A DNA stretch of 64,000 bases. It comes from Paracoccaceae bacterium. GTDB lineage: Bacteria; Pseudomonadota; Alphaproteobacteria; Rhodobacterales; Rhodobacteraceae. Of the stretch, positions 810-17,714 are shown one piece after another. Below the pieces are notes generated by a model. It was not told the origin of the DNA, did not search any database, and saw nothing but the letters and a program-made list of their open reading frames with translations. Numbering within the stretch: the first letter of the stretch is position 1; the number at the start of each line of letters is the position of its first letter. Location of the stretch: the NCBI GenBank assembly GCA_024742405.1, contig JANSYP010000008.1:39106-103105 (forward strand), in the 5' to 3' direction. Both the position numbers and the translations under genes were made by a program.

Positions 810-3800
810 TCAAGCGAAGAGAAAGTCGTCTACTGGTACATAATCGGCGATGTCGAGAACGCCGTCGTAGCGCGCGGCCTCTGAGAGCGCGGCCCCGGTG
901 ACGAGATAGGCCTCGCCGGCATCGGATGCGCCGAGATCGCCCCGCCACGCACCGATCAGGACATCAGCCAAGCCATCACCATCGACATCTCCAGCATCCG
1001 CCACGCTCCAGCCGACGGTGCTTTCTTCGCCGAGACCAAGGATCGAGATCCCCTGGTCAGGCGTCATGTCAGCCAGGCGAAAGACCCCGTCTCCAGCGGT
1101 GGTGAAGTCGTCCGCCAGAGCCTCGCCGAAGACAAGGTAAGCGCCGCCACTCTCGCCGAGACCGTAGGTGCCTATGAGAATGTCAGGCGCACCTTCGCCG
1201 TCGACATCACCCGCTGTCGACACCGAGAAGCCGGTAAGGTCGCGCTCGTCCGCGCCGACAAAGCGCAGGCCACGACCGCCCGACAGGTCGGAGAGATCGA
1301 CCGTGACATCAAGACCTGGCAGCGTCTCCAGGGTGAGGCCGGCGCCCGACAACAGAAACACTTCGCCGCCGAAGAACGCACCGTCGGCATCGGAGAGATA
1401 GGCACCGAACAGAACATCGCCGAAGCCGTCTCCATCGATGTCTCCCGCGTCGGAGAGGCCACGGCCGAGCGCATCGCCAGCATCCGGGCCGTAAACCACG
1501 AGACCTTCCCTGTTGGTCATCGTGCCTATGTCGATCTCGCCACCGGTACCGCGGGCGGCGAGGATGGCCGAGCCGAAGATCACCGCCCCGACACCATTCT
1601 GCGCACCGGAGCCGTCCGGCGAACCGGTCCAGCCGCCTGCGATGACATCGAGCAGCCCGTCGCCGTCGACGTCGCCCGCGCCCGACACCTGGAAGCCCAG
1701 GAGGTCCTGCGCCTTCTCGCCGACGATGGTGACGCCGTCCGCGCCCGAGAGGTCGGCAAGCGCGATGGTTCCGTCGCCGTCGTCCCCGGTTTCGGCGAGG
1801 ATGGTCGCGCCAAAGACGACATGGGTCTCGCCTCTGCGTCCGTTGGCCTGGCCGGCGCCGATGACGATGTCGTCATGGCCGTCGCCGTCCAGATCGCCGA
1901 CAGAGGAGATCTGGTGTCCGGCATAATCAAGGATGGCCGAGCCAGTGAGCGTCACGCCTTGGTCCTTCGTCAGCGCGCCAAGGTCGATGGCGGTTTCGCC
2001 TGCCCGCGCGGCCTCGATCGCTGAGCCGAACAGGACGAAAGCGCGGCCAGCGAAGATGTCGGCACCGAACGCACCGACGAGGACGTCGCCCAGCCCGTCC
2101 CCATCAACGTCGCCGGCGTCTGCCACACTCCAACCCGCGAACTCGGCATTGAGAGCGCCCTGCAGGAGCGTCCCTGCGCCACCTGAGAGGTCGCCAAGAT
2201 CCAGTGTGGCAAAACCGTTTGTCGGCCGGAGTGCGCCGAGGGTTGCACCATCGACGACATAGGCCTCGCCGGTCGACAGCAGCGCGCCGCGGTCTGCGCT
2301 GAACGCGCCGACGACAATTTCGGGCGTACCGTCGCCGTCCACATCGCCGGCGGTGGAGACCGAGATGCCGGCGTTGTCGTCCGCATCGACACCCGTCAGC
2401 GCGACGATGGACAGCGGCTGGACGGTAATGTCAGCGTCGGTAAGCTCGGTATTGCGGACTAGGACGCTGGTTTCGCCATAATCCAGAACCGTATGGCCCG
2501 ATCTCGCATTGAAGGTGAGCGTGTAGTCCGAGTTGTCCGCAAGGCGGATGACGTCGATACCAACCTCGAAATCGGAGATGACATCCTGTCCGTCGGCGGT
2601 CCCGAAGTGGAAAATGTCGGCGCCGTCTCCGCCAACGACGCGGTCGTCATCGGCGCCGCCGGTGATCAAGTCGTCACCGTCGCCGCCGAAGATGTAATCG
2701 CGGCCGGCGTCTCCGCTCAGCCTGTCGTTATCGGCGCCGCCGAGAACGCTGTCGTCGCCCGCGCCGCCTTCGATGTCGTCGCGCCCGTCATTGCCGCGGA
2801 GCCGGTCGTTGCCGTCTCCGCCGAAGATGTCATCGCCGCCTTCGCCGCCATTCAGATTGTCGTTGCCGTCTCCGCCGATCACCGTGTCGTTGCCACGGCC
2901 ACCGATGATGCGGTCGTTGCCTGCGCCCCCGTCGAGAGTGTCGTCGCCGTTGCCGCCGTTCACGGTGTCTTCGCCGTCTTCACCGAAAATCGTATCGTCG
3001 CCGTTCCCGCCGGAGGCGCGGTCGTCGCCTGACCCGGACGAAATGAAGTCCTCGCCGTCCTGACCTGCCAGCCTGTCGTTGCCCTCGCCGCCGGCCAAGC
3101 CGTCGTCGCCTGAGCCGCCGCGGAGATTGTCGTCGCCCTGTCCGCCAGACATGCGGTCGTCACCATCTCCACCGAACAGTTCATCGTCTCCGCCGTTGCC
3201 GGCAAGGAAGTCGTCGCCACCCTGGCCGCGAATGATGTCGTTGCCGTCGGCGCCGCGCAGAAGCTCCCCATCCGCGGTGCCGCGAAGTGTGAGGTCCCCC
3301 GGCAGCGGGGTATCCGCCGTGCCGAAGTTGAAGGTCCGGGTATCGCCAGGCTCAATGGCCGCGAGCGGTTGGCCGGCGGAATCCTCAAACACGCCTTCCT
3401 CGAACTCCACGGCGTAGCGTGCGTCGGGACGAAAGAAGTCGGACGGCGTGACGATCGCTGTGTCGCCGTCGATCTGAACGAACAGCGGATCGCGCACATC
3501 GACAACGAGGATGTCGGACGGGTCGTCGCGGTTGACGAAGCGGATCTCGCCCTCGCCGCGCACGACCGCCTCGGTAAAGGTGAGGACGACGGATGTGCCG
3601 GGGTCGACATCGCGGCCATTGTCCGCCGGTTCGGACGCGAGGAGAAACGGGCGCGCATCGGCGCCGAAATCGATCGCGACCGGGGTCGTCGTGATCCCGT
3701 CGGCCTCGTAGCCGAGGCGGCCGTCCGAGTTCGAGCCCCAGGAGTAGGTGGTCCCATCGGCCGCAACGGCGATGATGTGGTTCGGTCCGGTCGCGATCTC

Positions 3801-5918
3801 GACGATCTCGACGTCGTCGAGTTCGGCGATCTTGGTGGGATAGAACGAGCCATCGGTTTCGACCGCCTGGTCGCCATCGAGCGCGCCGGTCGGACCCTCA
3901 TCGTTCGGACCCCAGGCATAGACGTCGCCATCGGCGGTCAATGCGACGGCCCAGCGGGCGCCGCCCTTGACGTCGATGACCGCGCCCGGAATGTCGATCT
4001 CGACCGGGACCAGCACCTTGTCGTCGGTCGGCCCGAATGTGCCATCGCCATTGTCTGTGCCGACGAGAAGCTGCCCGAACGAATTCTCGCCCCAGCCGTA
4101 GAGCCGACCGGATGCGGAGACGGCATAGGACGTCTGCGTAGCGGCCGCGACGGCGACGATATCGGCGGGCAGTCCCTCGATGAGAACCGGCGACAGGACC
4201 TCCCGTACCGGATCGCCGTCGTCCTCGAGTTGGGCGGAGCCGGCGGCCTGTCCGTCGATGTTGGAGCCAAAGCCGTAGACTGATCCGTCGTCGGTGAGTG
4301 CAACCGTGTGGGACGTTCCGGCGGCAACGGCGAGCACGCGACCCGGCAGATCGACCTCGGTCGGGACGAGGCGTTCGTCCTCGTCGCCCTGACCGAGCTG
4401 ACCGGAGGTGTTCTGTCCCCAGGCGTAGAGCGTGCCGTCGCTGGTGATCGCGTAGGACGCGCCGTTGCCCATCTCGATGACGGCCACGGGTTTCTCGTCA
4501 AGCGAGCCGGAAATCCTTTCGGGGACAAGTCGTTGTTCCTCGTCGCCGAGGCCGAGGCGGCCGGAGTTGCCGAAGCCCCAGATGTAGATGTCGCCGTCCG
4601 AGGTCAGGAACGCGGCGTGGATGAGGCCTGCGGAGACAGAGACGATATCACCGTCGAAGCCGCTCGGCAGCTCGACCGCGATCGGTGCCGCGATGTCGTA
4701 ACCCACAACACCCTGGCCGAGCTGCCCGAGGATGTTCTCTCCAGCTGCCGTAAGCGCACCGCTGTCGGGGTCCAGAAAGACGGAGAAATGATTGCCGGCG
4801 CCGACGGTCGTGTTCGCCGGGGCGACGGTGCCTTCGTAGAAGGCCAGCGACCGCGGCCGCTCCAGCGTTTCTTCGTCAAACGCGCGGGACGCGAGGATGT
4901 TCGTCTCGCCGATATCGAAATAGTCGCCATCGCCGTTCACGTCGGTAAGAATGTAGACATTGTCGCCGAAAGCGTCGGAGTCATTGGATGTGAGGACGAT
5001 GCGGCCCTCGCCGTCGGCTGCGACCGAGAAGGCGGCGAACGTCTCGAACACGCCTGGCACAAGGCTGGAGTTCCAGATCTCGACGGTCTCGTCAGGCTGG
5101 TCGATGACGCCGGAGCCGTCGAGGTCGGTGAAACGCACCAAACTGTTGCCGTCATCGTCGCTGTCCAGCCATTCGAAGACGACGATGCTCTCGCCGTCGG
5201 CAGCGGCGGTGAAGTCGATGGGCGCGCCGGTCGATGTCTTGTCGGCGAAGGTCGAGAACTCGTCGGCCTCGATAGTGCCAGAGCCGTCGGTGTCCTCGAA
5301 CGTGTAGATGGAGTCCTCGGCGGCCCCCGACGGGTCGATGAGGTATCCGCGAGTGCCGATGAACGTCAGATCAAACGGCGACGAGGTCGGAACGATGGCC
5401 GTGAGGTCGAGCCAGAGCGTTGCTTCGCCAGCGTCCTCAGCGTCGCCGTCACCGTTGAGATCCTCGGTGCGGTAGATGCCGTCCTGCGGGCGGGAAGAGA
5501 CGCCCGCGTTCACGACGTAGATCGCGCCGTCCGGACCCTCGGCGATGCCGTTGGGCGTCGGCAGCGTGAAGGAGGCGTCGTTGCCGGCCTCCGAGAACCA
5601 GACAGAGGCCTCGCCCGCGTCGTTGGCATCGCCATCGCCGTTCAGATCGAACAGGCGATAGACAGTGTCGGTGTCGCCGTCACCGATGTAGACTGCCCCG
5701 TCTGACGCTTGGGTCAGGTTCAGGATGTTCCCGGTCGGGTTGACGAGGCCACTTGCGTTGTCGCCATCGAAGAACACGATCCGTTCGCCGGCATCGGCCG
5801 CGTCGCCATCCCCGTTCGTGTCCGCGAGCAGATAGACCTTGTCGCTACCCACCACCGAACGCGACCCCTGGTCGCCAAGCAAAACGCCATCGACTGGCGC
5901 GTTGAAAACACGCGTCAT
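810..5918 (-). CDS. Giant multi-propeller calcium-binding protein (RCC1 + RTX + FG-GAP), probable secreted or surface adhesin-like protein
   Basis: ORF track, 1702 aa. My counts from the translation: six DxNGDGDxxDxGE-type loops at the N-terminus; seven RCC1-like repeats (GQLGQG, GRLGLGDEE, SGQLGQGDEDERLVP); an Ig-like segment; 24 consecutive GGxGxDxxx nonapeptides; seven FG-GAP repeats (AGDVDGDGxxDxxxGA). No N-terminal signal peptide. Confidence 0.93.
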   Translation of the reverse strand: MTRVFNAPVDGVLLGDQGSRSVVGSDKVYLLADTNGDGDAADAGERIVFFDGDNASGLVNPTGNILNLTQASDGAVYIGDGDTDTVYRLFDLNGDGDANDAGEASVWFSEAGNDASFTLPTPNGIAEGPDGAIYVVNAGVSSRPQDGIYRTEDLNGDGDAEDAGEATLWLDLTAIVPTSSPFDLTFIGTRGYLIDPSGAAEDSIYTFEDTDGSGTIEADEFSTFADKTSTGAPIDFTAAADGESIVVFEWLDSDDDGNSLVRFTDLDGSGVIDQPDETVEIWNSSLVPGVFETFAAFSVAADGEGRIVLTSNDSDAFGDNVYILTDVNGDGDYFDIGETNILASRAFDEETLERPRSLAFYEGTVAPANTTVGAGNHFSVFLDPDSGALTAAGENILGQLGQGVVGYDIAAPIAVELPSGFDGDIVSVSAGLIHAAFLTSDGDIYIWGFGNSGRLGLGDEEQRLVPERISGSLDEKPVAVIEMGNGASYAITSDGTLYAWGQNTSGQLGQGDEDERLVPTEVDLPGRVLAVAAGTSHTVALTDDGSVYGFGSNIDGQAAGSAQLEDDGDPVREVLSPVLIEGLPADIVAVAAATQTSYAVSASGRLYGWGENSFGQLLVGTDNGDGTFGPTDDKVLVPVEIDIPGAVIDVKGGARWAVALTADGDVYAWGPNDEGPTGALDGDQAVETDGSFYPTKIAELDDVEIVEIATGPNHIIAVAADGTTYSWGSNSDGRLGYEADGITTTPVAIDFGADARPFLLASEPADNGRDVDPGTSVVLTFTEAVVRGEGEIRFVNRDDPSDILVVDVRDPLFVQIDGDTAIVTPSDFFRPDARYAVEFEEGVFEDSAGQPLAAIEPGDTRTFNFGTADTPLPGDLTLRGTADGELLRGADGNDIIRGQGGDDFLAGNGGDDELFGGDGDDRMSGGQGDDNLRGGSGDDGLAGGEGNDRLAGQDGEDFISSGSGDDRASGGNGDDTIFGEDGEDTVNGGNGDDTLDGGAGNDRIIGGRGNDTVIGGDGNDNLNGGEGGDDIFGGDGNDRLRGNDGRDDIEGGAGDDSVLGGADNDRLSGDAGRDYIFGGDGDDLITGGADDDRVVGGDGADIFHFGTADGQDVISDFEVGIDVIRLADNSDYTLTFNARSGHTVLDYGETSVLVRNTELTDADITVQPLSIVALTGVDADDNAGISVSTAGDVDGDGTPEIVVGAFSADRGALLSTGEAYVVDGATLGALRPTNGFATLDLGDLSGGAGTLLQGALNAEFAGWSVADAGDVDGDGLGDVLVGAFGADIFAGRAFVLFGSAIEAARAGETAIDLGALTKDQGVTLTGSAILDYAGHQISSVGDLDGDGHDDIVIGAGQANGRRGETHVVFGATILAETGDDGDGTIALADLSGADGVTIVGEKAQDLLGFQVSGAGDVDGDGLLDVIAGGWTGSPDGSGAQNGVGAVIFGSAILAARGTGGEIDIGTMTNREGLVVYGPDAGDALGRGLSDAGDIDGDGFGDVLFGAYLSDADGAFFGGEVFLLSGAGLTLETLPGLDVTVDLSDLSGGRGLRFVGADERDLTGFSVSTAGDVDGEGAPDILIGTYGLGESGGAYLVFGEALADDFTTAGDGVFRLADMTPDQGISILGLGEESTVGWSVADAGDVDGDGLADVLIGAWRGDLGASDAGEAYLVTGAALSEAARYDGVLDIADYVPVDDFLFA
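2610..3270 (-). repeat. RTX nonapeptide repeat block (24 units) inside the giant gene
   Basis: Translation GADGNDIIR GQGGDDFLA GNGGDDELF ... GGDGADIF. The 27-nt periodicity is also visible as repetitive antisense ORFs in the track (2493..3032, 2773..3063). Confidence 0.9.
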
Positions 5919-6660
5919 TCAGATTTCCCCCAGTTTTTCTGCTTGATCGACAAGCAGACCCACGATCGGTCCACGGCACCGACCAAATGCATGTCGGCTG
6001 GCCGCGGAGTCGCTGGGCTGGCTGTTCGCGAGGTTAGCTGGGAGATATCTTGGCGGATGTCAATCTGACAAAAACAATCAGAAATCGCGCCGTCTGCTGT
6101 CGAGAGAGCGAAAACGCGTTTTGGTCCAGTTACTTATATGTGCGTCTGACATGAATGTCGCACGTCCCGCGTCGCGCTGATTGAGCCCGGCTGCAGAGAA
6201 TTGAGGGTTTGCAGCTTCACCGTACCGTCTTAACGGACGGGCCAGTCTGGGGGGCTCCGCATCGCTGAGAACTCGTTTCTGCAGGCGCGAACACCAGCTT
6301 GATCCCTTTACGTCAGTAGCGACCGCATGTGCGTCTGTTTGTTTTGTCCTGCAGTGCGTGAGCGCTGCGACGACGCAGCGAATGTCAGCCGGTCGCAATC
6401 CGACGCTTCGCGCCGCTGCCGGTTCATGCCCCGGGTGCACACAAACCACCGGACTCTGCCACTGTTCCAGAGCGGTGAATAAACGGTACCAAGCCCGCAT
6501 TTTGAAGGCGTCTCGATGAACCTCGTCATCGATAGGTTCGAAGGTGTTTGACGTGGGAACAGGAGGCAAACCTGCAACTCCTGTGCATATCTCGACCAGA
6601 CCACGTCGCGTCAGGAGGCGCATTTACGTGCGCCCGAGGTGCATTGGGAGTGTCGACACA

Positions 6661-6681
6661 GATTTGGTGACCGAGTCACCG
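6661..6681. promoter_or_regulatory. Palindromic operator-like site, copy 1 (GATTTGGTGACCGAGTCACCG)
   Basis: Inverted repeat GGTGAC-N3-GTCACC. Its flanks are almost identical to copy 2 (GATTTGGTGA...AGTCACCG). It lies 54 nt upstream of the ATG at 6735 that heads the cydD remnant. Confidence 0.55.
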
Positions 6682-6734
6682 TCTCTTCCCGCGCATGTGT
6701 GGAAAAAGATCTGCGGTACTTTCGGGGAATCGCC

Positions 6735-7865
6735 ATGCTCGCTCAAGTAGATCGCACAGCCGAAAGCTGGTTGCGGCTGCGCTGTCTCGCCTCTGCGGGC
6801 GCAGGTGGACCAACCGTCGCCCTTTATCCGTCTCTGATGATTTGGATGCCTGAGCCGGCACCGTCCGGAACTCCACGTAACCTTCGGCATCACCCGCGCA
6901 GAGACCCTTCGCACGCGCACCATGGCCGTCCTGCGCATCGCCTTTCTGTCCTCGACGGTGCTGGAGCTTTTTTTCAGCCCTGGGCGTTGCGCTCGTCGCC
7001 GTTTTCGTCGGGTTCACCCTGCTCGGAGAAATCGGTTTCGGATCCTGGGGAACGCCGCTGACGCTCGGCCAGGCCCTGTTTCTGCTCCTGATCGCCCCCG
7101 AGTTATTCCAGCCGCTCCGCGACCTGGCACGACCGTGCCGCTGGCCATGTCGTCACCGCTGTACTGCATGCGCTGGATGCGGCGGACCGCGCGACTTGCC
7201 TCGGCCTTGGCCAGCCGTCCAGACCGCTGCCCGGACCGATTGCGTTGTCGCTCCGCGGCGTGCGCGTGGATATGCGTGGCCAGCTGGTACGCCTGCCCGA
7301 CGTTGCACTGCGCGGAGGCGATGCGCTCGCCCTGACCGGGCCGAGTGGCGCGGGCAAGAGCACCGCGCTCGCTGCCATTGCGGGACTGACCCCGATCGCG
7401 TCAGGCCGGATTGATGTGTGTGGCCTGGCGCTTAGTGCCGAAACCGCCGATGCATGGCGCGCCCGGATCGCCATGGTGCCGCAAGGCCCCCATTTCCCGG
7501 ATGTGCCGCTCGGGGACTGGCTCGATATCGCGAAGTCCGGCCGCGATCCGTGGCCCGCGCTCCGGAAGGCCGGGGCCGACGGCATCGTCACGCGCCTTCC
7601 CGAGGGTCTCGAAACCCGCCTGGGCGAGACCGGGGGCGGGGTGTCCGGCGGAGAGGCGCGCAGGCTGCTGCTGGCGCGCGCCATTCTCACGGGCAGTGAT
7701 CTCATCCTCGCCGACGAGCCGACCGCCGATCTCGACCGGGAGACGGCGGAGCGGATCATTGAAGCGCTCTGCGATCGCAACGTCGAAGGGTGCACGGTGA
7801 TCGTTGCGACCCATGACCCTGACCTCGCCGTCGCGATGGGCCGGCAGGTGGCGCTCACGGCATGA
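6735..7865 (+). pseudogene. cydD: cydD remnant (thiol-exporting ABC transporter CydD): large internal deletion plus at least two frameshifts
   Basis: The frame of ORF 6922 gives TMAVLRIAFLSSTVLELFFS. After the T7 run at 6968-6974 the CydD-like sequence continues one frame over (ALGVALVAVFVGFTLLGEIGFGSWGTPLTLGQALFLLLIAPELFQPLRDLA). It shifts again near 7120-7125 into ORF 7245..7865 (WHDRAAG..., Walker A GPSGAGKST, LSGGE, Walker B). Only about 1.1 kb remains where a CydD of about 570-590 aa needs about 1.75 kb. Confidence 0.8.
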
Positions 7866-8892
7866 GGGCGCTTCTGCAAATCGCCGGGCTGCTCTTGACC
7901 GCAGACCGGTGGGCCATGGCGCGGGGGGCTGCACTATCGGTCACCGTCCTGGCGATGGGGGCGGCACTTCTGGGACTCTCGGGCTGGTTCATCACCGCAA
8001 CCGGAATTGCGGGTCTTGCAGGGCTTGGGATCGCCTTCGATGTCTTCCGGCCATCGGCGGGCGTGCGCTTTCTGACGCTGGGGCGCACGGCTGCGCGCTA
8101 TGGCGAGCGACTGCTGACCCATGACGCGACGCTCCGCGCGCGGTCATCGGGGTTTTCGTGGCACTGGCGCTGGCCGAAACGCTGCTGCCCCTGCGGCGCG
8201 GCTTCTCCGATCTTGGTCGCATGGTGGGGGCCGCAAATCGCATCGCCCCGCGCGTGACACCGGCCCGTCCGGTCCAGGCCGGGTTGGAGCCGCTATCTGC
8301 TCCGTTGCTGGCCCTGGACTGCGCAGAGGGGATACTCACGCTTCAAGCCGGCGAGGCCGTCGTTGTCACTGGGCCCACCGGTGCCGGAAAATCCACCTTG
8401 CTGATGCAGATCGCGGGGCTCGGCGACGATGGCGGTATCTCGATCAAGGGCCATCGGCCAAACGACCGGCCCGAGAATGCGTTGCGCGCACTGGTCGCGG
8501 CGCTGCCGCAGAGAAGCGCGCTCATCGCCGGTACGGTGCGTGACAACCTGTCTCTCGCGGGCGACATGCGTGATCGGGACATGTGGGACGTTCTCGACGC
8601 GACGGCCCTGGCGCCCGACATCAGAGCCCGCGGAGGGCTCGACGGACGGCTGGGCGAAGGCGGTGCTGGTTTGTCGGGCGGGCAGGCGCCGCGCCTGACC
8701 CTGGCCCGTGTCCTGCTGAAGCACCCGCAGATCCTGCTTTTGGACGAGCCGACAGAGGGCCTCGACGCCGGCACCGCAGATGCGGTTCTGCGGAACGTAA
8801 GGGACTTCCTTCCGAACGCGCTGATCGTCGTGGCCATGCATCGGAGCGCGGATCGTCCGATTTTCGACAGGATCGTTCGGCTCTCGCCCTGA
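7862..8892 (+). pseudogene. cydC: cydC remnant: N-terminal ~90 aa joined out of frame to the last TM helix and the ATPase domain
   Basis: ORF 7862..8257 starts MRALLQIAGLL...LSGWFITATGIAGLAG...AGVRFLTLGRTAARYGERLLTHDATLRA (CydC N-terminus) and then becomes nonsense. ORF 8158..8892, in another frame, resumes with (AVIGVF)VALALAETLLPLRRGFSDLGRMVGAANRI followed by an ABC ATPase (GPTGAGKST, LSGGQ, LLLDEPTEGLD). About 600 bp of TMD-coding sequence is missing. The start overlaps the cydD stop (ATGA). Confidence 0.8.
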
Positions 8893-8910
8893 TTTGGTGA
8901 TGAAGTCACC
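8891..8910. promoter_or_regulatory. Palindromic operator-like site, copy 2 (GATTTGGTGATGAAGTCACC)
   Basis: Same motif as copies 1 and 3. It overlaps the cydC-remnant stop codon and lies 114 nt upstream of the cydA start. Confidence 0.55.
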
Positions 8911-9023
8911 GAGGCGTCCCGCCCGAACGATCTACACCACCCCTCGATGCGCAGCGGAGGCCGACTCGGGCTTGTCCGGGACCCGTTCGGTCCGCGCCGC
9001 GCAACGATCGAGGTGGAGCCAGA

Positions 9024-10700
9024 ATGGAGCTAGATGTCGTCGAGCTGTCGCGCCTGCAATTCGCGATGACAGCCATGTACCACTTCCTCTTCGTGCTGCT
9101 GACGCTGGGCCTGTCGGTCATCGTCGCGATCATGGAGACCGTCTATGTCATGACGGGCCGCCCGATCTGGCGGCAGATGACGAAATTCTGGGGCACGCTC
9201 TTCGGGATCAATTTCGTTCTTGGCGTCGCCACCGGCATCACCATGGAATTCCAGTTCGGCATGAACTGGAGCTACTACAGCCACTATGTCGGCGACATCT
9301 TCGGGGCGCCGCTCGCCATAGAAGGGCTGATGGCGTTCTTCCTCGAAGCGACCTTCGTCGGGCTCTTCTTCTTCGGCTGGGACAAGCTGACGAAGGTGCA
9401 GCATCTCACCGTCGCATGGCTCGTAGCACTCGGTTCGAACTTCTCGGCGCTCTGGATCCTGATCGCGAACGGATGGATGCAGAACCCCGTGGGGTCCGAG
9501 TTCAATCTCGATACGATGCGCATGGAAATGACGTCCTTCGCCGAGGTGCTCTTCAACGAGGTGGCCCAGGCGAAATTCGTGCATACTGTGTCGGCGGGCT
9601 ACGTGACCGCTGCGGTCTTCGTCCTCGGTGTCTCGGCCTGGTATCTGCTGATGGGCCGCCACATCGCGCTGGCGAAGCGCTCCATCACCATCGCGGCCTC
9701 CTTCGGACTGGCTGCGGCCCTCTCCGTCGTCGTGCTCGGCGACGAGTCGGGCTACTCCGCCAGCCACACCCAGAAGATGAAACTCGCCGCGATCGAGGCG
9801 ATGTGGGAGACCCACGACGCGCCCGCGCCCTTCACCATTGTCGGGTTTCCCGATCAGGCGGCGCGCGAGACCCACTATGCCGTGGAGATCCCCTGGGCCA
9901 TGGGTCTGATCGGCACGCGGTCCCTGACCGAAGAGATCCCGGGCATCGACGCCCTCGTGGCCGAGGCCGGTGACAGAATCCGTCGCGGTCTGATCGCTTA
10001 CGACGCGCTGATGGTCATCCAGGCAGAGCGCGAGACTGCGCCGGACGACGCCCGGCGGGTCTTCGAACAGACCAAGGACGATCTGGGCTATGCCTATCTG
10101 CTGAAACGCTATGTCGATGACCCGCGCGACGCGAACGATGCGCAGATCGCACAGGCGGCCTGGGACACCGTGCCCACCGTCTGGCCGCTTTTCTGGGCCT
10201 TCCGGATCATGGTGGGGCTCGGCTTCGCGTACATCGGCATGATGCTCTTTTTCTTCTGGCGGTCATCTTTCCGGGAACAGACCTATCCGCGCTGGGCGCT
10301 CTGGGGCGCAGTCTTTGCCATCCCGGCCCCCTGGATCGCGGCGGAACTGGGCTGGTTCGTCTCCGAATTCGGCCGTCGGCCCTGGACCGTGGATGGCGTC
10401 CTGCCGACGGCACTCTCGGCCAGCCACCTCAGCGTTCAGGACCTGCTGATCACGCTGGCGGGCTTCATGATCTTCTACACCATCCTCTTCATCGTCGAGA
10501 TGGGGCTGATGCTGAAATACATCCGCAAGGGCCCGTTCCAGGATGTCGAGGAAACCGACGCCTGGGAGGCGCGGCACGCGCATCGTCTGCGAACCCATGA
10601 CGGCCAGGGGCCCTTCGCTCCGGCCGGTGCGCGCGCGGCCTCGGCCGTTGGCGGCGCGCTCCCCGGCTCCAGCGCAACCCCGGTGGAGTACCTGACATGA
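9024..10700 (+). CDS. cydA: Cytochrome bd ubiquinol oxidase subunit I
   Basis: ORF track, 558 aa. N-terminus MELDVVELSRLQFAMTAMYHFLFV is the canonical CydA start. Multi-TM protein with a Q-loop-sized hydrophilic insert. Confidence 0.97.
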   Translation: MELDVVELSRLQFAMTAMYHFLFVLLTLGLSVIVAIMETVYVMTGRPIWRQMTKFWGTLFGINFVLGVATGITMEFQFGMNWSYYSHYVGDIFGAPLAIEGLMAFFLEATFVGLFFFGWDKLTKVQHLTVAWLVALGSNFSALWILIANGWMQNPVGSEFNLDTMRMEMTSFAEVLFNEVAQAKFVHTVSAGYVTAAVFVLGVSAWYLLMGRHIALAKRSITIAASFGLAAALSVVVLGDESGYSASHTQKMKLAAIEAMWETHDAPAPFTIVGFPDQAARETHYAVEIPWAMGLIGTRSLTEEIPGIDALVAEAGDRIRRGLIAYDALMVIQAERETAPDDARRVFEQTKDDLGYAYLLKRYVDDPRDANDAQIAQAAWDTVPTVWPLFWAFRIMVGLGFAYIGMMLFFFWRSSFREQTYPRWALWGAVFAIPAPWIAAELGWFVSEFGRRPWTVDGVLPTALSASHLSVQDLLITLAGFMIFYTILFIVEMGLMLKYIRKGPFQDVEETDAWEARHAHRLRTHDGQGPFAPAGARAASAVGGALPGSSATPVEYLT

Positions 10701-11860
10701 TCCTCCACGATCTCATCGAATTTGAAACCTTGCGCGTGATCTGGTCGGCGCTGCTCGGGCTCCTGCTGATCGGCTTCGGGCTGACCGACGGCTTCGATAT
10801 GGACGTGGGCGCGCTCCTGCCCTTCGTCGCCCGGACAGAACTGGAACGGCGCGTGGTGATCAACACGGTCGGGCCGGTCTGGGAGGGCAACCAGGTCTGG
10901 TTCATCCTGGGCGGCGGCGCGATCTTTGCTGCCTGGCCGCCGCTCTACGCGGTCAGCTTTTCGGGTTTCTACCTGGCGATGTTCGTCATTCTCGCCGCGT
11001 TCATCGTCCGGCCCGTGGCCTTCAAGTACCGCTCAAAGCGGGACAGCGCCAGCTGGCGGAGCGGCTGGGACTGGGCGCTGTGCGCCAGCGGGGCGATCCC
11101 CGCGCTCTTCTTCGGGGTCGCGGTGGGCAATGTCCTGTTTGGCGTGCCCTTTCACCTCAACGACATGCTGATGCCGCGCTATGATGGCTCCGTCCTGACC
11201 AAGTTCGCGGGGCTCTTGCGCCCCTTCGCACTGCTTGCCGGCGTCGTGTCCCTGGCGATGCTGCTGACGCACGGCGCGGCATGGCTCAGCCTGAAGGCCG
11301 AAGGTCCCGTCGCCCGCCGCGCGCGGCGGATCGGCAGCGGGGCCGGGCTGGTCGCCATGGCAGGCTACGCCCTGGCCGGATTCTGGCTCGCCACCGGCAT
11401 CCCCGGCTTCGCGCTGGTGGGGGAGGTTGTCACCGACGGCCCGTCCAACCCGCTCTATTCGCAGGTGTCGCAGGGCGGCTCCTGGCTCTCCGCCTACGCG
11501 GCGCGCCCCTGGATCGCGGTTGCGCCCCTCATGGGCTTCGTCGGCATGGCGCTGGCCATTCGCGGGCTGCGGGCCGGGCGCGAGCATTCGACGCTGCTCT
11601 GGTCGAAGCTCGGGATCACCGGTGTGATCTCGTCGGTGGGGCTTACGATGTTCCCCTTCATCCTGCCCTCGACCGTCGACCCGAACGCCTCGCCGACGGT
11701 GTGGGACGCCTCCTCCTCGCACCAGACGCTTTTCATCATGCTGGTCTGCACGGCGATCTTACTGCCGCTGATCCTCGCCTACACCGCGTGGGTCTACCGG
11801 GTGCTCTGGGGCAAGGTCACCGCAGCCAACGTCACCGCCAATGCCGACAGCCTCTACTGA
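10697..11860 (+). CDS. cydB: Cytochrome bd ubiquinol oxidase subunit II
   Basis: ORF track, 387 aa. ATGA overlap with cydA. Polytopic membrane protein with a CydB-like sequence (VWEGNQVWFILGGGAIFAAWP). Confidence 0.97.
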   Translation: MILHDLIEFETLRVIWSALLGLLLIGFGLTDGFDMDVGALLPFVARTELERRVVINTVGPVWEGNQVWFILGGGAIFAAWPPLYAVSFSGFYLAMFVILAAFIVRPVAFKYRSKRDSASWRSGWDWALCASGAIPALFFGVAVGNVLFGVPFHLNDMLMPRYDGSVLTKFAGLLRPFALLAGVVSLAMLLTHGAAWLSLKAEGPVARRARRIGSGAGLVAMAGYALAGFWLATGIPGFALVGEVVTDGPSNPLYSQVSQGGSWLSAYAARPWIAVAPLMGFVGMALAIRGLRAGREHSTLLWSKLGITGVISSVGLTMFPFILPSTVDPNASPTVWDASSSHQTLFIMLVCTAILLPLILAYTAWVYRVLWGKVTAANVTANADSLY

Positions 11861-11875
11861 GAAAGGAGGATCGCA

Positions 11876-12031
11876 ATGTGGTACTTCGCCTGGCTGCTCG
11901 GACTGCCCCTGGCCGCGGTCTTTGCCGTGATGAACGCCGTGTGGCTGGAGCTTCAGCGCGACCGCAGGCTGGCCGACGAGGATGGGCCGCACGCGGTGCA
12001 GCTGCCGCCAAAGCGGGTGGCCGCCGAGTAG
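11876..12031 (+). CDS. cydX: Cytochrome bd oxidase small subunit CydX (51 aa)
   Basis: Below the ORF-track size cut-off. AGGAGGA RBS 6 nt upstream. Translation MWYFAWLLGLPLAAVFAVMNAVWLELQRDRRLADEDGPHAVQLPPKRVAAE carries the MWYFxW single-TM signature of CydX. Starts 15 nt after cydB. Confidence 0.8.
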   Translation: MWYFAWLLGLPLAAVFAVMNAVWLELQRDRRLADEDGPHAVQLPPKRVAAE

Positions 12032-12078
12032 CCGAAAACCCGCCGCTGCAACGAAAACCAAAGAAGGGAGCAAGACCA

Positions 12079-13380
12079 ATGGAAAGACGTCAGTTCCTGT
12101 CCCTAGCACTGGGAGGAGGGGCGGCGACGCTCGCCGCCGCGGGGCGCCCGGCAGAGGCCGCCCCGGTTCGGACATCGGCGCGCATCGTCATCATCGGCGC
12201 CGGAGCCGCCGGAACGGCGCTCGCCAACCGATTGACCCGCCGCCTCGACGGGGCCCAGATCACGATCATCGACCCTCGGCAGCAGCATCTTTACCAGCCG
12301 GGGCTGTCGCTCGTCGCCGCCGGGCTGAAACCTTCGAGCTACGTCGTCTCGGACACGGCCCAGTGGCTGCCCTCCGGCGTGACCTGGCTGCCGGAACGGG
12401 TCGCGGCCGTGGATGCCGAGGCCAAGACGGTCGCGACCGAAGGCGGTCAGATGCTGCCTTACGACTGGCTGGTCGTCGCATCCGGCCTCTTGCTGGATCA
12501 TGATGCAATCGAGGGTTTCAGCCTCGACATGGTCGGCGAGAACGGGCTCGGCGCGCTCTATGCCGGACCGGAGCATGCCGCCCGGACATGGGCCGCGGCC
12601 TCGAAATTCATCGAAGAAGGCGGTACCGCGCTCTTCACCCGGCCCGCGACCGAGATGAAATGCGCCGGCGCGCCGCTCAAGCACGCCTTTCTGATCGACG
12701 ACATCGCGCGCCGCGCCGGCAGCGCAAGCAAGACCAACATGGTCTATCTCGCGCCGCAGGGTGTGCTCTTCAGCGTGCCGATCGTCGCCGAAAAGGTCCG
12801 GATGCTCATTGGGGAGCGCGGCATCGACACGCAGTTCAACCAGACGCTGAAATCCATCGATGCCGGCGCCCGGCGCGCGACCTTCACGTCCGAGACCGGC
12901 GGCGAGACCGAGATGGACTATGACTATCTCCAGGTCATCCCACCGCAGCGCGCGCCCGATTTCGTGCGCCAGTCCGGCCTCAGCTGGGCGGACCGGTGGG
13001 TGGATCAGGGCTGGATAGAGGTCGACCCCGCAACCCTGCGACACCGCCGCTACCCGGAGATCTTCGCCGTGGGCGACATCGCCGGCGTGCCCAAGGGCAA
13101 GACCGCCGCCAGCGTGAAATGGCAGGTGCCGGTGGTCGAGGATCATCTGGTCGGCGCCATCGAGGGCCGCGAGGGGTCCCAGACCTACAACGGCTACACC
13201 TCCTGTCCGCTCATCACCCGGGTCGGGCGCGCGATGCTGGTGGAGTTCGACTACCAGAACAACCTCACGCCCTCCTTTCCCGGGATCATCGCGCCGCTGG
13301 AAGAGCTCTGGATCAGCTGGCTGATGAAGGAGGTGGCGCTGAAAGCCACCTACAACGCAATGCTCCGTGGCCGGGCGTAG
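12079..13380 (+). CDS. sqr: Sulfide:quinone oxidoreductase (type II-like) with twin-arginine signal peptide
   Basis: In-frame ATG at 12079 inside track ORF 11281..13380, with a GGGAG RBS. MERRQFLSLALGGGAATLAAAGRPAEA is a Tat-type leader. GAGAAG FAD fold; motifs HLYQPG, KCAGAPLK and YNGYTSCPL match the two redox cysteines of type II SQR. Confidence 0.88.
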   Translation: MERRQFLSLALGGGAATLAAAGRPAEAAPVRTSARIVIIGAGAAGTALANRLTRRLDGAQITIIDPRQQHLYQPGLSLVAAGLKPSSYVVSDTAQWLPSGVTWLPERVAAVDAEAKTVATEGGQMLPYDWLVVASGLLLDHDAIEGFSLDMVGENGLGALYAGPEHAARTWAAASKFIEEGGTALFTRPATEMKCAGAPLKHAFLIDDIARRAGSASKTNMVYLAPQGVLFSVPIVAEKVRMLIGERGIDTQFNQTLKSIDAGARRATFTSETGGETEMDYDYLQVIPPQRAPDFVRQSGLSWADRWVDQGWIEVDPATLRHRRYPEIFAVGDIAGVPKGKTAASVKWQVPVVEDHLVGAIEGREGSQTYNGYTSCPLITRVGRAMLVEFDYQNNLTPSFPGIIAPLEELWISWLMKEVALKATYNAMLRGRA

Positions 13381-13390
13381 GGAGGGACCG

Positions 13391-13759
13391 ATGAAAGACC
13401 TGACATTCTCTACGCTGGTCGCGGTGTTCGAAGAGGTTTTCGGACGCGGGCTCTTCTGGATGATGGTCGCGGCTGCGGCACTCATCACGCTTGGATATCT
13501 CTACGTCCTGCTGCGCGACCGTGCGGTGAGCTGGAAGAAATTCCTGCTCGCCCAGCTGTCGATGCCGGTCGGGGCGGTTCTCGCGGTCTGGTTCGTCATG
13601 GTGATGACCGAGTCCCACCTGTCCGACCTCGGCGGTCCGGTCGACATCATCGTTTTTCTGGCCGTCGCCGCGGTGGGCGCCGTGGGCATGGCGATCCTCG
13701 TCTACACGCTTGAGTCGCTCCTGGGCTCGACGCGCACCAAGCGTGCGCCGGAGGGATGA
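13391..13759 (+). CDS. Small membrane protein (about 3 TM), unknown function
   Basis: ATG at 13391 after GGAGGGA, 10 nt downstream of sqr. Hydrophobic segments LFWMMVAAAALITLGYLYVLL, VGAVLAVWFVMVM, IIVFLAVAAVGAVGMAILVY. Confidence 0.5.
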   Translation: MKDLTFSTLVAVFEEVFGRGLFWMMVAAAALITLGYLYVLLRDRAVSWKKFLLAQLSMPVGAVLAVWFVMVMTESHLSDLGGPVDIIVFLAVAAVGAVGMAILVYTLESLLGSTRTKRAPEG

Positions 13760-13787
13760 GCATGGTCCGACAGGCAAGGAGCCGGTC

Positions 13788-14762
13788 ATGAGCAGCCTTG
13801 AGCACGCAGCGGCGCCCGAGGCCGCACCCGCCCGGCTGGAGCACTTTCCGATCACCTTCTTCGGGGTCACGATGGGGCTTTTCGGGCTGGCCCTGGCGCT
13901 CCGCGCCGGAGGGGTCGCGGCGACGTCGCTGCTCGTGACGGCGGGTACCGCGTTGCTGCTGATCGCGCTGGCGGGCCTCTATGCCCTCAAGATCCTGCGG
14001 CATCCCGATCAGGTCGCTGCGGAATGGCAGCACCCTGTCCGGCTCTCCTTCTTTCCGGCCGCGAACATCTCGGTCCTGCTCCTGTCGCTTCTGCTGCAGG
14101 ACAGCCTGCCGGGCGTCTCGGCCGTGCTCTGGGGGCTGGGTGCCGTCATTCAGGCGATCCTGACGATCGTCATCGTATCGGCCTGGATTTCCCATCGCGC
14201 CTTTGTGCCCGGGATGCTGTCGCCGGCCTGGTTCATCCCCGCGGTCGCCAATGTGATCGTGCCCCTCGGCGGGGCGCATCTGGCGCTCTTCGAGATCAGC
14301 TGGTACTTCTTTTCGGTCGGGCTCCTGTTCTGGGCGATCCTCCTGACGCTGGTCTTCAATCGCCTGATCTTTCACGATCCGCTGCCGGGCAAACTGCGCC
14401 CGACCATGGTGATCCTGATCGCCCCGCCCTCGGTCGCGTTCCTGGCCTGGACCGAGCTGAATGGCGGCAGCCTCGATGCGGCTGGCCTGTTTCTCTTCAA
14501 TACCGGGCTTTTCTTCGCGGCGCTTGTCGCGGTGCAGGTGCCCGCGCTGCTGCGTCTGCCCTTCGCGATGTCCTTCTGGGCGCTGTCCTTCCCGCTGGCC
14601 GCACTGACGACAGCGGTCTTCCGCTACGGCGCGCTCAGCGGAAATCACCTCTCCCAATTGGCGGGTTTCGGCCTTCTCGGCCTGCTCGCCGTCACCATCG
14701 CCGCGCTGTCGGTCCGCACCATCCGTGCGGCGATGGCTGGCGAAATCTGCAAACCGGAATAA
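13788..14762 (+). CDS. TehA/SLAC1 (TDT) family anion channel/transporter
   Basis: ATG at 13788 after AAGGAG. LEHFPITFFGVTMGLFGLALALR resembles the TehA N-terminal motif. About 10 TM helices. Confidence 0.75.
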   Translation: MSSLEHAAAPEAAPARLEHFPITFFGVTMGLFGLALALRAGGVAATSLLVTAGTALLLIALAGLYALKILRHPDQVAAEWQHPVRLSFFPAANISVLLLSLLLQDSLPGVSAVLWGLGAVIQAILTIVIVSAWISHRAFVPGMLSPAWFIPAVANVIVPLGGAHLALFEISWYFFSVGLLFWAILLTLVFNRLIFHDPLPGKLRPTMVILIAPPSVAFLAWTELNGGSLDAAGLFLFNTGLFFAALVAVQVPALLRLPFAMSFWALSFPLAALTTAVFRYGALSGNHLSQLAGFGLLGLLAVTIAALSVRTIRAAMAGEICKPE

Positions 14763-14786
14763 ACCCCAAACCACAGGAGATCCTTC

Positions 14787-15221
14787 ATGAAAAAACTCAT
14801 CCTTTCCGCCCTTCTGGCGGCCACGACCGCGGCGTCAGCCTTTGCCGAGGACGCGTCCAAACTCGTGACCGTCGTGACATCGGCCGAGCCGCAGACCCAG
14901 CTGATGGCCATGGTGCTGACCATGCAGGCCGCGCAGCAGGGCGCCGCCGCGCACATCCTGCTCTGCGGACCGGCCGGCGACATCGCGCTCCGGGACGCGC
15001 CTGCCACGGCAACCACGGGCCAGCCGCCCCGCGATATGAGCCCCCAGGGACTGATGCAGATGATCCGCGAGAAAACCGGCGCGACCGTCGAGGTGTGCGC
15101 GATCTACCTGCCCGGGCGCGGTGACGATGCTTCGGTCCTCCTGGACGGGATCAGTGTCGCCAAGCCGGACGAAATGGCCGGACGGCTGATCGCGCCGAAC
15201 ACCCGCGTTCTGTCCTTCTGA
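14787..15221 (+). CDS. DsrE/DsrF-like sulfur-relay family protein with Sec signal peptide
   Basis: ORF track, 144 aa. MKKLILSALLAATTAASAFA-ED is a leader peptide. The mature part, KLVTVVTSAEPQTQLMAMVLTMQAAQQGA..ILLCGPAGD...VEVCAIYL, is DsrE-fold-like. Confidence 0.6.
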   Translation: MKKLILSALLAATTAASAFAEDASKLVTVVTSAEPQTQLMAMVLTMQAAQQGAAAHILLCGPAGDIALRDAPATATTGQPPRDMSPQGLMQMIREKTGATVEVCAIYLPGRGDDASVLLDGISVAKPDEMAGRLIAPNTRVLSF

Positions 15222-15238
15222 GGCGCCACGCGCCTCGA

Positions 15239-15282
15239 TCACCTGCCGCTCTGCGAAACGCGCGCGTCAGGGCGGCAGGTGA
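15239..15282 (+). repeat. Inverted repeat TCACCTGCCGC-N22-GCGGCAGGTGA between the dsrE-like and rhodanese genes
   Basis: 11-bp perfect arms read directly. No T-tract follows, so it is not a classical terminator. Confidence 0.5.
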
Positions 15283-15341
15283 CATCGGCGGGCGCCAGAC
15301 GGCCCGCGCGCGCCCGTTCCACCCCGACTTGGAGAACTCTC

Positions 15342-15929
15342 ATGCGCATTCTCACCCGCATCGCAGCAATCTTGGCGCTGGCTCTGGCAGCCGCTGCCGC
15401 TATCGCCGCGCCGGAACCGGATGACCCCGGAAAACGGACCTCCTGGGGCCTCTATCTGACCTCGAAAGAAGCCTACGACTTGAAGCAGGCGCAAGGTGAC
15501 GACGCGCTCTTTGTCGATGTCCGTGAACCGGTCGAGATCATGTTCACCGGCTTCACTGACGTCGTGGACATCAACGTCCCCTTCATGCTGGTCGACCCGT
15601 CGGCTTGGCACCCGGATAAACCTGTCCTGAAGATGGAGAAGAACCCGGACTTCGCCGCCGGCATCCTTTCAGCGCTCGACGCACGTGGCCTCGACCGTAC
15701 CGCGCCGGTGATCCTGATGTGCCGCTCGGGCGGCACGCGCGGCGCGCCCTCCGCCAACGCGCTCGAGGGGCACGGGCTGGAGCAGGTCTATGTCGTGGTC
15801 GACGGGTTCGAAGGATCGGCGCGCAAGGACACGCCCGACGCCCCGTGGCGCCTCGTCAACGGCTGGAAAAATGCGGGCCTGCCCTGGAGCTATGATCTGA
15901 ACCCCGCGAAAATCCATCTGAGGGACTAG
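15342..15929 (+). CDS. Rhodanese-domain sulfurtransferase with signal peptide
   Basis: In-frame ATG at 15342 after GGAGAA. MRILTRIAAILALALAAAAAIA-AP is a leader peptide. The active-site loop CRSGGTRG is typical of rhodanese. Confidence 0.8.
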   Translation: MRILTRIAAILALALAAAAAIAAPEPDDPGKRTSWGLYLTSKEAYDLKQAQGDDALFVDVREPVEIMFTGFTDVVDINVPFMLVDPSAWHPDKPVLKMEKNPDFAAGILSALDARGLDRTAPVILMCRSGGTRGAPSANALEGHGLEQVYVVVDGFEGSARKDTPDAPWRLVNGWKNAGLPWSYDLNPAKIHLRD

Positions 15930-15946
15930 GCAGCGCGCGGCGGCGG

Positions 15947-16864
15947 TCACATCGCCGGGGCACTCGCGGCCAGGTCCGACCGCGCCGCCGTCAGGCAGGC
16001 TCCGATCTCTGCGAAGAGCTGCGCATGGGGCGAGCTCTGCCGCCATGCCAGGGCGATCTGGCGCGGGCGCGCGCCTTCGAGCGCGCCGAGATGCAGCGCA
16101 TGACCCCTTGAGATGCCCGCATCGATGGCGAGCTTCGGCAGCAGCGTGATGCCGATCTCCTCCTCGACCATCGCCACGAGGGTCGAGAGGCTCGTCGCGG
16201 CAAAGCTCGGATCTTCGTCCAATGTGATGTCCGGAAAACTCGACAGCGCATGGCGCTGCAGACAGTGGCCTCGCTCCAGAAGCAGCAGCTTCCTGTCGAC
16301 CAGATCCTCCGACCGGATCGTGCTGCGGTTGCCTAGCGGATGGTCCGTCGGCGTCGCGAGCCAATAACCGTCGCTGAACAGGATCTCCGTTTCGATCTGC
16401 GCCGGCAGCGGGTGCGGCAGCGCCATCAGGATCAGGTCGAGCCGGCCCTCCATCAGCCCCTCGACCAGCGGATCGGTCAGTTCCTCGCGCAGATAGAGCT
16501 TTGTATCAGGCAGCGCCGCGCGCAAACGCGGCATCGCCCGCGGCATCAAAAACGGCCCCACCGTCGGGATCGTGCCGAGGCGCAGGGCGGTTGCCTGCGC
16601 GGCGTTTTCGCGCTGGGCCCGCTCCTCGAGATCCTGAACCCCGGCCAGGATCCCGCGCGCCCGCTCGGCAAGATCGCGGCCGACGGGCGTCATCAGCACG
16701 CGGTGCTTGGTCCGCTCGGCCACCTGAACGCCCAGCCGACTCTCCAGCTCCTTCAATCCGGTCGAAAGTGTGGATTGTGTGACGTGGCACAACTCCGACG
16801 CGCGCGAGAAGCTTAGGGTCTTGTCCAACGCGACAAGGAATCGGAGCTGGCGGAGGCTGGTCAT
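15947..16864 (-). CDS. oxyR: LysR-family regulator, OxyR-like, lacking the second redox cysteine
   Basis: ORF track, 305 aa. HTH FSRASELCHVTQSTLSTGLKELE. LLLLERGHCLQRHALSSFPDITLDEDPSFAATSLSTL aligns with E. coli OxyR LLMLEDGHCLRDQAMGFCFEAGADEDTHFRATSLETL. Divergent from a peroxiredoxin gene. Confidence 0.8.
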   Translation of the reverse strand: MTSLRQLRFLVALDKTLSFSRASELCHVTQSTLSTGLKELESRLGVQVAERTKHRVLMTPVGRDLAERARGILAGVQDLEERAQRENAAQATALRLGTIPTVGPFLMPRAMPRLRAALPDTKLYLREELTDPLVEGLMEGRLDLILMALPHPLPAQIETEILFSDGYWLATPTDHPLGNRSTIRSEDLVDRKLLLLERGHCLQRHALSSFPDITLDEDPSFAATSLSTLVAMVEEEIGITLLPKLAIDAGISRGHALHLGALEGARPRQIALAWRQSSPHAQLFAEIGACLTAARSDLAASAPAM

Positions 16865-16965
16865 TGCTTATCGATTTAGTGAATAGCCAGAAGCTTCACA
16901 ATCAATTTCCAAGATTGCCGAGCGCGCCATATCTGACCAGCATCGCAAAATAGAGGAGCAAGGAC

Positions 16966-17628: not shown

Positions 17629-17714
17629 TCAGTCAGGTGAACCGACCGTTGGTGCGTCTGGGAACCGGACGCGCCGCACAGCGCCGGATATCGGAAACCG
17701 GGGAAAGCAAGCGC

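Follow-up and report, generated by a model that had tools for sequence, protein, structure and literature searches.

Gutted cydD and cydC genes upstream of uninterrupted cydABX reading frames in a Paracoccaceae bacterium

The 64,000-nucleotide (nt) stretch of Paracoccaceae DNA analysed here (the window; NCBI GenBank assembly GCA_024742405.1, contig JANSYP010000008.1, positions 39,106 to 103,105) carries the genes for a cytochrome bd oxidase, cydA, cydB and cydX, and, upstream of them, the wreckage of cydD and cydC, the genes for the two halves of the ATP-binding cassette (ABC) transporter CydDC. An earlier note, made from the sequence alone, had described both transporter genes as gutted and the oxidase genes as intact, and this description is confirmed by the open reading frames (ORFs), by Pfam and by tblastn against intact relatives. 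The cydDC region measures ~2.16 kb, whereas intact relatives need ~3.3 kb, so that the note was also right in considering it too short for two half-transporters. Between 6735 and 8892, the ORF list and Pfam yield only three ABC-related ORFs (Table 1).

Throughout, related loci and contigs are labelled L and sequencing runs X, and coordinates are window positions unless an L label is given. The best loci in a CydA scan of one genome per species (80 loci) were L001, from Roseovarius litoreus, and L002, from an uncultured member of the Rhodobacteraceae; a CydA scan of metagenome contigs found nothing closer than 84%, and the C-terminal CydC ORF, used as a protein query, returned only fragmentary proteins, without a close relative. 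The CydA cluster has two members within 90% identity for which contigs were obtained: L162, a Logan contig whose genome is also present in run X9 (208x), and L163, from the NCBI metagenome-assembled genome GCA_039184415.1, with intact cydD (548 amino acids, aa) and cydC (537 aa). L001, L002 and the close relative L163 supplied the intact CydD and CydC references for tblastn.

What remains of cydD and cydC

In L001 and L002, the genes follow one another in the order membrane protein (413-416 aa), Crp-like regulator (234-255 aa), cydD (556 aa), cydC (532 aa) and cydA. The first remnant in the window comes from the first of these genes: window 6729-6857 matches residues 11-53 of the membrane protein encoded upstream of the regulator and cydD (tblastn, L001/L002), with 42-47% identity and E values of 1e-4 to 6e-12 against the genes of L001, L002 and L082, and the L001 protein belongs, according to NCBIfam, to the TsoY family (NF047644 TsoY_fam, 494 bits). 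A TDT/SLAC1-like identity of this stub was dropped in favour of the NCBIfam assignment, and its reading as the N-terminus of cydD is ruled out by its homology to the upstream gene; the earlier note, which had allowed cydD a short N-terminal stub, has to be corrected on this point, whereas the last two transmembrane (TM) helices, the ATPase domain and the frameshifts, two at least, that it attributed to cydD all stand. The TsoY-family gene can be followed by homology as far as 6857, and cydD from 6892 onwards, at L163 codon 222. The span missing between them (deletion 1) corresponds to L001 1717-4280, L002 4750-7304 and L082 4746-7299, and comprised the rest of the TsoY-family gene, the entire Crp-like regulator gene and cydD codons 1-221, which encode TM1-4.

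The surviving part of cydD is spread by tblastn over three frames, with codons 222-246 in frame 1 (6892-6966), ~247-300 in frame 2 (to 7116) and 301-548 in frame 3 (7119-7865) or, in the numbering of L001 and L002, residues ~231-556 across frames 1, 2 and 3. It carries an additional T (+1) in the T7 run at 6968-6974, which is found only in the window and is absent from L162, and an 11-nt deletion at 7116/7117 that is common to both. The Walker A motif (7338-7364) and the histidine matching E. coli CydD H312 are retained. Against TIGR02857 CydD the remnant scores 166.8 bits (cut-off 435), and its fragments 6968-7117 and 7119-7862, whose first match is TIGR02857/NF008379, are 77-82% identical to L163 CydD.

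The cydD stop and the cydC start overlap (ATGA). Thereafter, cydC runs for 93 codons and resumes in another frame at codon ~283, in close agreement with the earlier note, according to which the first ~90 codons jump out of frame to the last TM helix and the ATPase domain; in the numbering of L001 and L002, residues 1-93 lie in frame 2 and ~281-532 in frame 1. The N-terminal part aligns to residues 1-90 of PDB 7zd5 chain C, in which the histidine of its LLTHDATLR segment is the equivalent of E. coli CydC H85, and scores 84.9 bits against NF008364 CydC (cut-off 630); the C-terminal part scores 160.5 bits against TIGR02868 CydC (cut-off 329) and keeps its Walker A motif (8371-8397), the second of the two that the note had correctly reported to survive. 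All four window fragments find their best NCBIfam match among the CydD/CydC models, with scores far under the full-length cut-offs, and neither gene encodes a full-length protein, of ~530-590 aa in the case of CydD, with six TM helices and a nucleotide-binding domain (NBD) in a single frame, cydC having lost ~189 codons and being divided between two frames.

The segment lost from cydC (deletion 2) corresponds to L163 8538-9105 and is flanked by a direct repeat of 9-10 nt, (C)GCTCCGCGC, at L163 8529-8537 and 9097-9105, an arrangement characteristic of deletion through short repeats, by slippage or illegitimate recombination. This segment is still present in the relatives X9/L162 and X8: the X8 and X9 contigs have an additional 570 and 564 nt, respectively, at window ~8139, and these inserts align, with their spacing preserved, to the middle of L002 cydC.

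The gutted state of cydDC is real and not an artefact of assembly. Window 5800-9194 is reproduced with 0 differences and 0 gaps in Logan contigs of runs X1, X2, X5 and X6, four independent assemblies from three studies at depths of 25-236x. The earlier note had named re-sequencing as the means to exclude an error; the independent assemblies do not restore a full-length cydD or cydC.

Table 1. Features in and around the cydDC region (window coordinates)
Feature	Position	Strand	Description
Palindrome, first copy	6663-6683	+	TTTGGTGAC-N3-GTCACC; upstream of TsoY-family stub; perfect GGTGAC-N3-GTCACC at 6666-6680
TsoY-family membrane-protein gene, 5' stub	6735-6857	+	~41 codons; tblastn/tblastx; left side of deletion 1
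Deletion 1 junction	6858-6891	.	~2.55 kb missing
cydD pseudogene remnant	6892-7865	+	Codons 222-548: TM5-6 and ATPase domain, three frames
ORF	7245-7865	+	206 aa; Pfam ABC_tran
cydC pseudogene, N-terminal part	7862-8139	+	93 codons, TM1-2; tblastn, frame 2 (7862-8140)
ORF	7862-8257	+	131 aa; without Pfam match
Deletion 2 junction	8139-8140	+	568 nt of cydC gone (codons ~95-283, TM3-5), out of frame
cydC pseudogene, C-terminal part	8140-8892	+	TM6 and ATPase domain, codons ~283-537, frame 1
ORF	8158-8892	+	244 aa; Pfam ABC_tran
Palindrome, second copy	8893-8913	+	Directly upstream of cydA; GGTGATGAAGTCACC at 8896-8910, 1 mismatch
cydA, intact	9024-10700	+	558 aa; Pfam Cyt_bd_oxida_I, E 7e-171
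cydB, intact ORF	10697-11860	+	387 aa; Pfam Cyt_bd_oxida_II, E 5e-96
cydX, intact	11876-12031	+	51 aa; Pfam YbgT_YccB, E 5e-13

Shared and private lesions among relatives

Over 20 kb, L162 and the window share 94.7% identity and are colinear, the one exception being an additional 568 nt that L162 has within cydC (with a 5-nt overlap between BLAST blocks), and L163 is ~90% identical over cydABX-sqr. In a three-way alignment of these sequences, L162 has deletion 1 and the 11-nt deletion, as does the window. Deletion 1 is common to the two because cydD homology starts at the same point, L163 codon 222, in both, and its junction is colinear in the relatives L162/X9, X8, X10 and X15. L162 alone lacks one C in cydD, with the frame restored after the 11-nt deletion, and has the cydD Walker A motif changed from GAGKST to GAGRGT, with loss of the lysine; its cydC is full length, with two in-frame stops, at codon 82 (GAG to TAG) and at codon ~119 (GAA to TAA), and a signature motif changed from LSGGQ to LSDGQ. 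Compared with intact orthologues, then, the window genes bear two large deletions, the 11-nt deletion and the +1 insertion, in four assemblies, and sister lineages bear different lesions after a shared founding lesion. The earlier note had proposed to map the deletion endpoints by alignment to the intact cydDC of relatives, and it is this alignment that places the two large deletions.

These comparisons show the sequence of events. In an ancestor shared with the ~5%-diverged relatives, a single ~2.55-kb deletion joined codon ~53 of the TsoY-family gene to codon 222 of cydD; the intervening Crp-like regulator gene was lost and cydD was killed. Subsequently, cydC, now without use, and the cydD remnant gathered lesions independently in each lineage: in that of the window, the +1 slip in the T-run and the 568-nt deletion between the 9-10-nt direct repeats, and in L162, the 1-nt deletion, the two nonsense codons, the loss of the cydD Walker A lysine and the mutation of the cydC signature. 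The suggestion of the earlier note that the loss might be more than an accident finds no support here: the lesions, which comprise a deletion between repeats, a frameshift in a homopolymer and nonsense mutations that a sister lineage acquired independently, look like neutral decay. The best explanation overall, and one that we consider highly probable, is that cydD and cydC are pseudogenes in advanced neutral decay, whereas cydABX has been kept, with haem coming from elsewhere. The locus presents a well-resolved case of stepwise operon decay, in which a founding deletion was followed by independent lesions in sister lineages.

The earlier note had also considered that the short forms might be the normal architecture of the clade, which they are not. 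Full-length cydDC stands directly upstream of cydA in 92 of the 132 related loci with enough flank, and ~20 more have nearly full coverage; cydAB without cydDC within 10 kb is found in ~10 related loci, so that unlinked arrangements exist. An independent case is L088 (JGI contig Ga0209573_1003265, 5642-6615), where cydD breaks off after codons 1-203 and continues directly into cydC codons ~452-522, and this gutted cydDC lies immediately upstream of intact cydA and cydB, whereas the relatives L090 and L028 (86% nt identity in cydA) are intact. The short forms are thus not a conserved architecture, and yet linked cydDC has been lost repeatedly.

Synonymous divergence between the window and L163 is ~0.5 in cydDC (L163 6611-9867 versus window 6892-8892) and 0.18-0.25 in cydAB and sqr. 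This contrast suggests that recombination has left a boundary close to the cydC/cydA junction or that the two operon halves have differing histories. The upstream context of L163 differs as well, with P-type ATPase, PPK2 and DUF1905 genes and without the TsoY-family or regulator genes.

Selection on the oxidase genes and the supply of haem

The oxidase genes encode full-length CydA, CydB and CydX, with a CydA of the long Q-loop type, as in bd-I (Pfam; full-length alignments to PDB 6rko/7ose). CydA matches E. coli bd-I CydA (6rko_A) with an E value of 6e-200 and its His/Glu/Met ligand motifs are aligned; CydB matches the E. coli bd-I protein at 9e-98. The window CydA is 3 aa longer than those of L162, L163 and L001 (...PVEYLT versus ...PAE), the ancestral stop having been lost (10689-10700), and there is now a 4-nt overlap between cydA and the start of cydB.

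Between the window and L162, the ratio of nonsynonymous to synonymous substitution rates (dN/dS, Nei-Gojobori) is 0.13 for cydA, 0.34 for cydB, 0.36 for cydX and 0.24 for sqr, compared with 0.37 for the cydD remnant and 0.50 for cydC. By nonsynonymous-to-synonymous (N:S) counts, cydA differs from the pseudogenes (Fisher, p=0.001). Since the split of the window and L162, five disabling lesions have arisen in the ~5 kb of adjacent pseudogene sequence, versus 0 frameshifts or stops in 6 kb of cydABX across the two lineages (conditional p=0.02). These figures indicate that cydA has been held by purifying selection since the death of cydD. If so, the oxidase would have remained of use during most of the period that followed the death of cydD, and its haem supply would, therefore, be independent of the local cydDC copy; the most likely source would be a haem exporter, of the CydDC type or another, encoded at an unlinked site in the genome, and such a redundant exporter would explain why the loss of cydDC was tolerated.

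Several observations weigh against this picture of a retained oxidase supplied from elsewhere. The 64-kb window contains no second cydDC, only generic ABC ATPases at ~30.7-32 kb. In a search of run contigs with the intact cydDC of L002 and L028, which sees matches of at least 80% nt identity only, no other genome-depth contig was found in X1 (the window genome, 236x) or in X9 (the L162 genome); L162's own cydDC contig did not align to L028, so that the latter adds little as a reference. The second copy that the earlier note had proposed to look for is thus absent from the window and from this range of identity, and the search covers close copies only: the result argues against a closely related second cydDC and would leave room for a divergent one. 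The N:S counts of cydB do not differ from those of the pseudogenes (p=0.78), and the dN/dS values of cydB and cydX are not distinguishable from the pseudogene benchmark, a neutral standard that is itself noisy, with values below 1 (0.24-0.94 by segment), small counts and GC-biased codon usage. At columns at least 97% conserved among ~150 homologues, the window CydB has six substitutions (W17S, A28G, G36D, D48E, L333P and F355L), an excess over other branches (p=0.0014) that is in keeping with an oxidase on the way to being lost and not with one still in use; the window CydA has three (P25L, A447S and Q452R), L162 has four in CydA and one in CydB, and L163, with intact cydDC, has one and none, respectively. 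No RNA run contains cydABX, and run X19 has 0 reads on 6000-13500. The status of cydB is, accordingly, ambiguous: in the window strain it looks relaxed, and constraint on it may be weakening. The "perfect conservation" that the earlier note ascribed to the oxidase was an overstatement, even if cydA is constrained.

A second cydC-cydA locus occurs in X2-X6 (contigs of 7,659 and 16,662 nt), with depth ratios to the window contig of 0, 1.3, 16, 4.5, 2.1 and 2.1 in X1-X6. A range from 0 to 16 led to its rejection as the missing copy, and because the ratio varies, the locus is assigned to a co-occurring organism. That organism is Rhodobacteraceae-like, its cydC-cydA junction is apparently intact and its abundance is independent of that of the window genome, so that the runs represent consortia and not pure cultures. 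In X1, X2, X5 and X6, exact 18-nt matches to 7720-7737 and 8164-8181 lie on another same-depth contig (30-35 kb). Their spacing of 2224 nt does not fit a second cydDC, for which ~1.0 kb is expected, and they are probably generic ABC and codon-bias matches.

The three-way choice that the earlier note laid out, among a second cydDC, CydDC-independent assembly and a dead oxidase, remains the right question. The strongest competitor of a retained oxidase is a dead one, a possibility to be taken seriously although we think it distinctly the less probable. Without CydDC, no haem would be inserted, cydABX would be next to decay, and the intact ORFs would reflect limited time and chance. Such a view has to reckon with a cydA dN/dS below the pseudogene benchmark and with the lesion-free cydABX, all the more as deletion 1 predates a divergence of dS ~0.13-0.16, which allows ample time for lesions, and with CydA ligand motifs that align with those of E. 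coli bd-I. It is nevertheless nourished by the window CydB, whose six changes exceed those of 144 of the 145 homologues (a single one has a higher count) and in which conserved-column hits make up about half of the lineage-specific nonsynonymous changes, fitting neutrality (29%) and not constraint, by the pseudogene-like N:S ratio that cydX shares with cydB, by the L8P, R46G and E441K changes at conserved columns of the L162 CydA, and by the lost stop of the window cydA, as well as by the requirement of E. coli bd maturation for CydDC (PMC10374445).

Rather unlikely, in our estimate, is a cytochrome bd that matures in this clade without any CydDC, with haem arriving by another route that makes cydDC dispensable. 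Some bd-family oxidase operons, of the CIO type, come without cydDC; linked cydDC was lost and cydAB kept in the unrelated lineage L088; and both the purifying selection on cydA long after the death of cydD and the lack, at the 80%-identity sensitivity, of a second cydDC-like contig at genome depth in X1 and X9 would be in line with such a route. However, that test is insensitive to divergent paralogues and covered part of the genome, redundancy is the commoner cause of gene loss, and every cited experimentally studied bd-I-type system requires CydDC (PMC10374445, PMC10691846). A literature search on TsoY and on cydDC-less cioAB systems found nothing usable. We similarly doubt that, in an alga-/coral-associated marine Rhodobacteraceae clade, a bd-I-type oxidase in a sulfide-detoxification locus has long run (dS ~0.15) without any CydDC, which would imply that haem is delivered to such an enzyme along a CydDC-independent route. 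Should a complete genome contain no cydDC at all, the maintenance of cydA by purifying selection would suggest that a bd-I-type oxidase can mature independently of CydDC, which, if true, bears on the still-open question of haem insertion into bd oxidases, a drug target (PMC10374445).

That the ORFs 7245-7865 and 8158-8892 have been kept as stand-alone ABC ATPases, in a remodelling possibly adaptive in a sulfide locus, strikes us as very improbable. In the window, both retain the Walker A, signature and Walker B motifs, and both are called as genes, with the exact proteins in public collections, but L162 has lost the cydD Walker A lysine and has a mutated cydC signature, the lesions differ between lineages, and dN/dS is 0.94 for the cydC NBD and 0.34 for the cydD NBD, no better than for the TM remnants. 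In older work, CydDC figured as a glutathione/cysteine exporter, and the loss of a thiol exporter within a locus for reduced sulfur was the premise of the earlier note. That premise is dated and the function contested. In recent cryo-EM and biochemical work, the only ligand found bound is haem rather than a thiol, and CydDC is described as a transporter of haem without which bd does not mature (PMC10374445, PMC10691846); no thiol ligand was seen (PMC10374445), and newer NCBI models also name CydDC a haem ABC transporter; because CydDC is assigned to haem and not thiol export, the sulfur-locus reading is weak. The two short ATPase ORFs are an annotation trap, pseudogene fragments rather than transporters. 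Finally, a true genome with full-length cydDC, misrepresented by assembly or sequencing, is barely conceivable, because apart from the T7 homopolymer at 6968-6974, an error-prone kind of site, no support for it was found, the four assemblies from three studies are identical, and deletion 1 is common to relatives that bear different lesions of their own.

Surroundings of the locus and comparison with known systems

The palindrome that stands before the TsoY-family stub and again before cydA has the extended form TTTGGTGAC-N3-GTCACCAAA, and a third, perfect site lies at 18413-18427 (18410-18430), just after a Crp/Fnr-family regulator gene (17625-18389); sites with at most two mismatches number nine in the window versus 3.0 expected. 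The first two sites are included in a 32-nt direct repeat (D1), the second copy of which is at 8891-8922. In L001, 55 nt separate the box from the TsoY-family start Met, to which the ATG at window 6735 aligns, and the window spacing is equal; because box and spacing are the same there, the operator that survives upstream has to be assigned to the TsoY-family gene. The operator-like palindrome singled out in the earlier note thus survives, as claimed, but is that of the TsoY-family gene, and cydABX has a copy of its own. L163 also has a perfect palindrome before cydA (9871-9885), and further sites are found in L001 (1525-1539 and 16914-16928) and L082 (18001-18015); a palindrome upstream of cydA is present in only 4 of the 132 related loci. 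The palindrome is probably the operator of a Crp/Fnr regulator family. A promoter and terminator consensus scan of 6400-9100 was uninformative.

Right after cydABX, 12079-23099 is occupied by a sulfide-handling cluster that includes an sqr-like flavoprotein, DUF5368, a SLAC1/TehA-type transporter, a rhodanese, a LysR regulator (minus strand), a 1-Cys peroxiredoxin, a Crp/Fnr regulator, a metallo-beta-lactamase (MBL)-fold protein and, at its end, a BLH(DUF442)-FAD oxidoreductase fusion and a SulP-STAS permease; L162 and L163 show synteny with the first part of this cluster. The cydABX-sqr-DUF5368-SLAC1 neighbourhood is conserved and leads on, via genes for a Crp-like regulator and an MBL-type protein, to one for a SulP-type transporter. 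Support of sulfide-resistant respiration by bd oxidases (PMC4815019) fits the conserved linkage of cydABX with sqr.

Farther downstream, third-position GC falls to 0.67-0.74 at ~23100-46500, compared with 0.80-0.90 in the flanks. Encoded in this segment are a sugar ABC transporter, two copies of Dak1 (dihydroxyacetone kinase), an HWE/HisKA_2 histidine kinase and a PhyR-type response regulator, and the whole may have entered as an island by horizontal transfer. On the other side of the locus, 810-5918 (minus strand) encodes a 1702-aa protein with RCC1-like repeats, a Big_5 domain and RTX (HemolysinCabind) repeats, found in the same place in L162; the ~0.8 kb between this gene and the TsoY-family stub (5919-6735) has a lower GC content, of ~0.59-0.61, and is without a called gene.

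Among known systems, the closest in layout is the cydDCAB(X) operon typical of many Alphaproteobacteria, such as Brucella (PMC5322542), with which the window shares the order cydD-cydC-cydA-cydB-cydX. With E. coli CydDC (PDB 7zd5; PMC10374445) it shares the equivalents of the haem-ligand histidines, CydC H85 and CydD H312, which are still readable, but, unlike intact CydDC, it lacks cydD codons 1-221 and the ~189 codons of cydC, so that neither product can form a six-TM half-transporter. In E. coli and in Methylocystaceae, cydABX and cydDC form separate clusters (PMC5322542); the window resembles this split arrangement in that cydABX is a unit with its own upstream operator, whereas those organisms have an intact cydDC elsewhere, which in the window would have to be assumed, the local copy being a visible wreck. 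The nearest parallel to the decay itself is L088, a marine metagenome contig in which, as in the window, intact cydA and cydB lie directly downstream of a gutted cydDC, although in L088 this came about by a single fusing deletion, in another lineage (CydA 76% identical) and in another upstream context.

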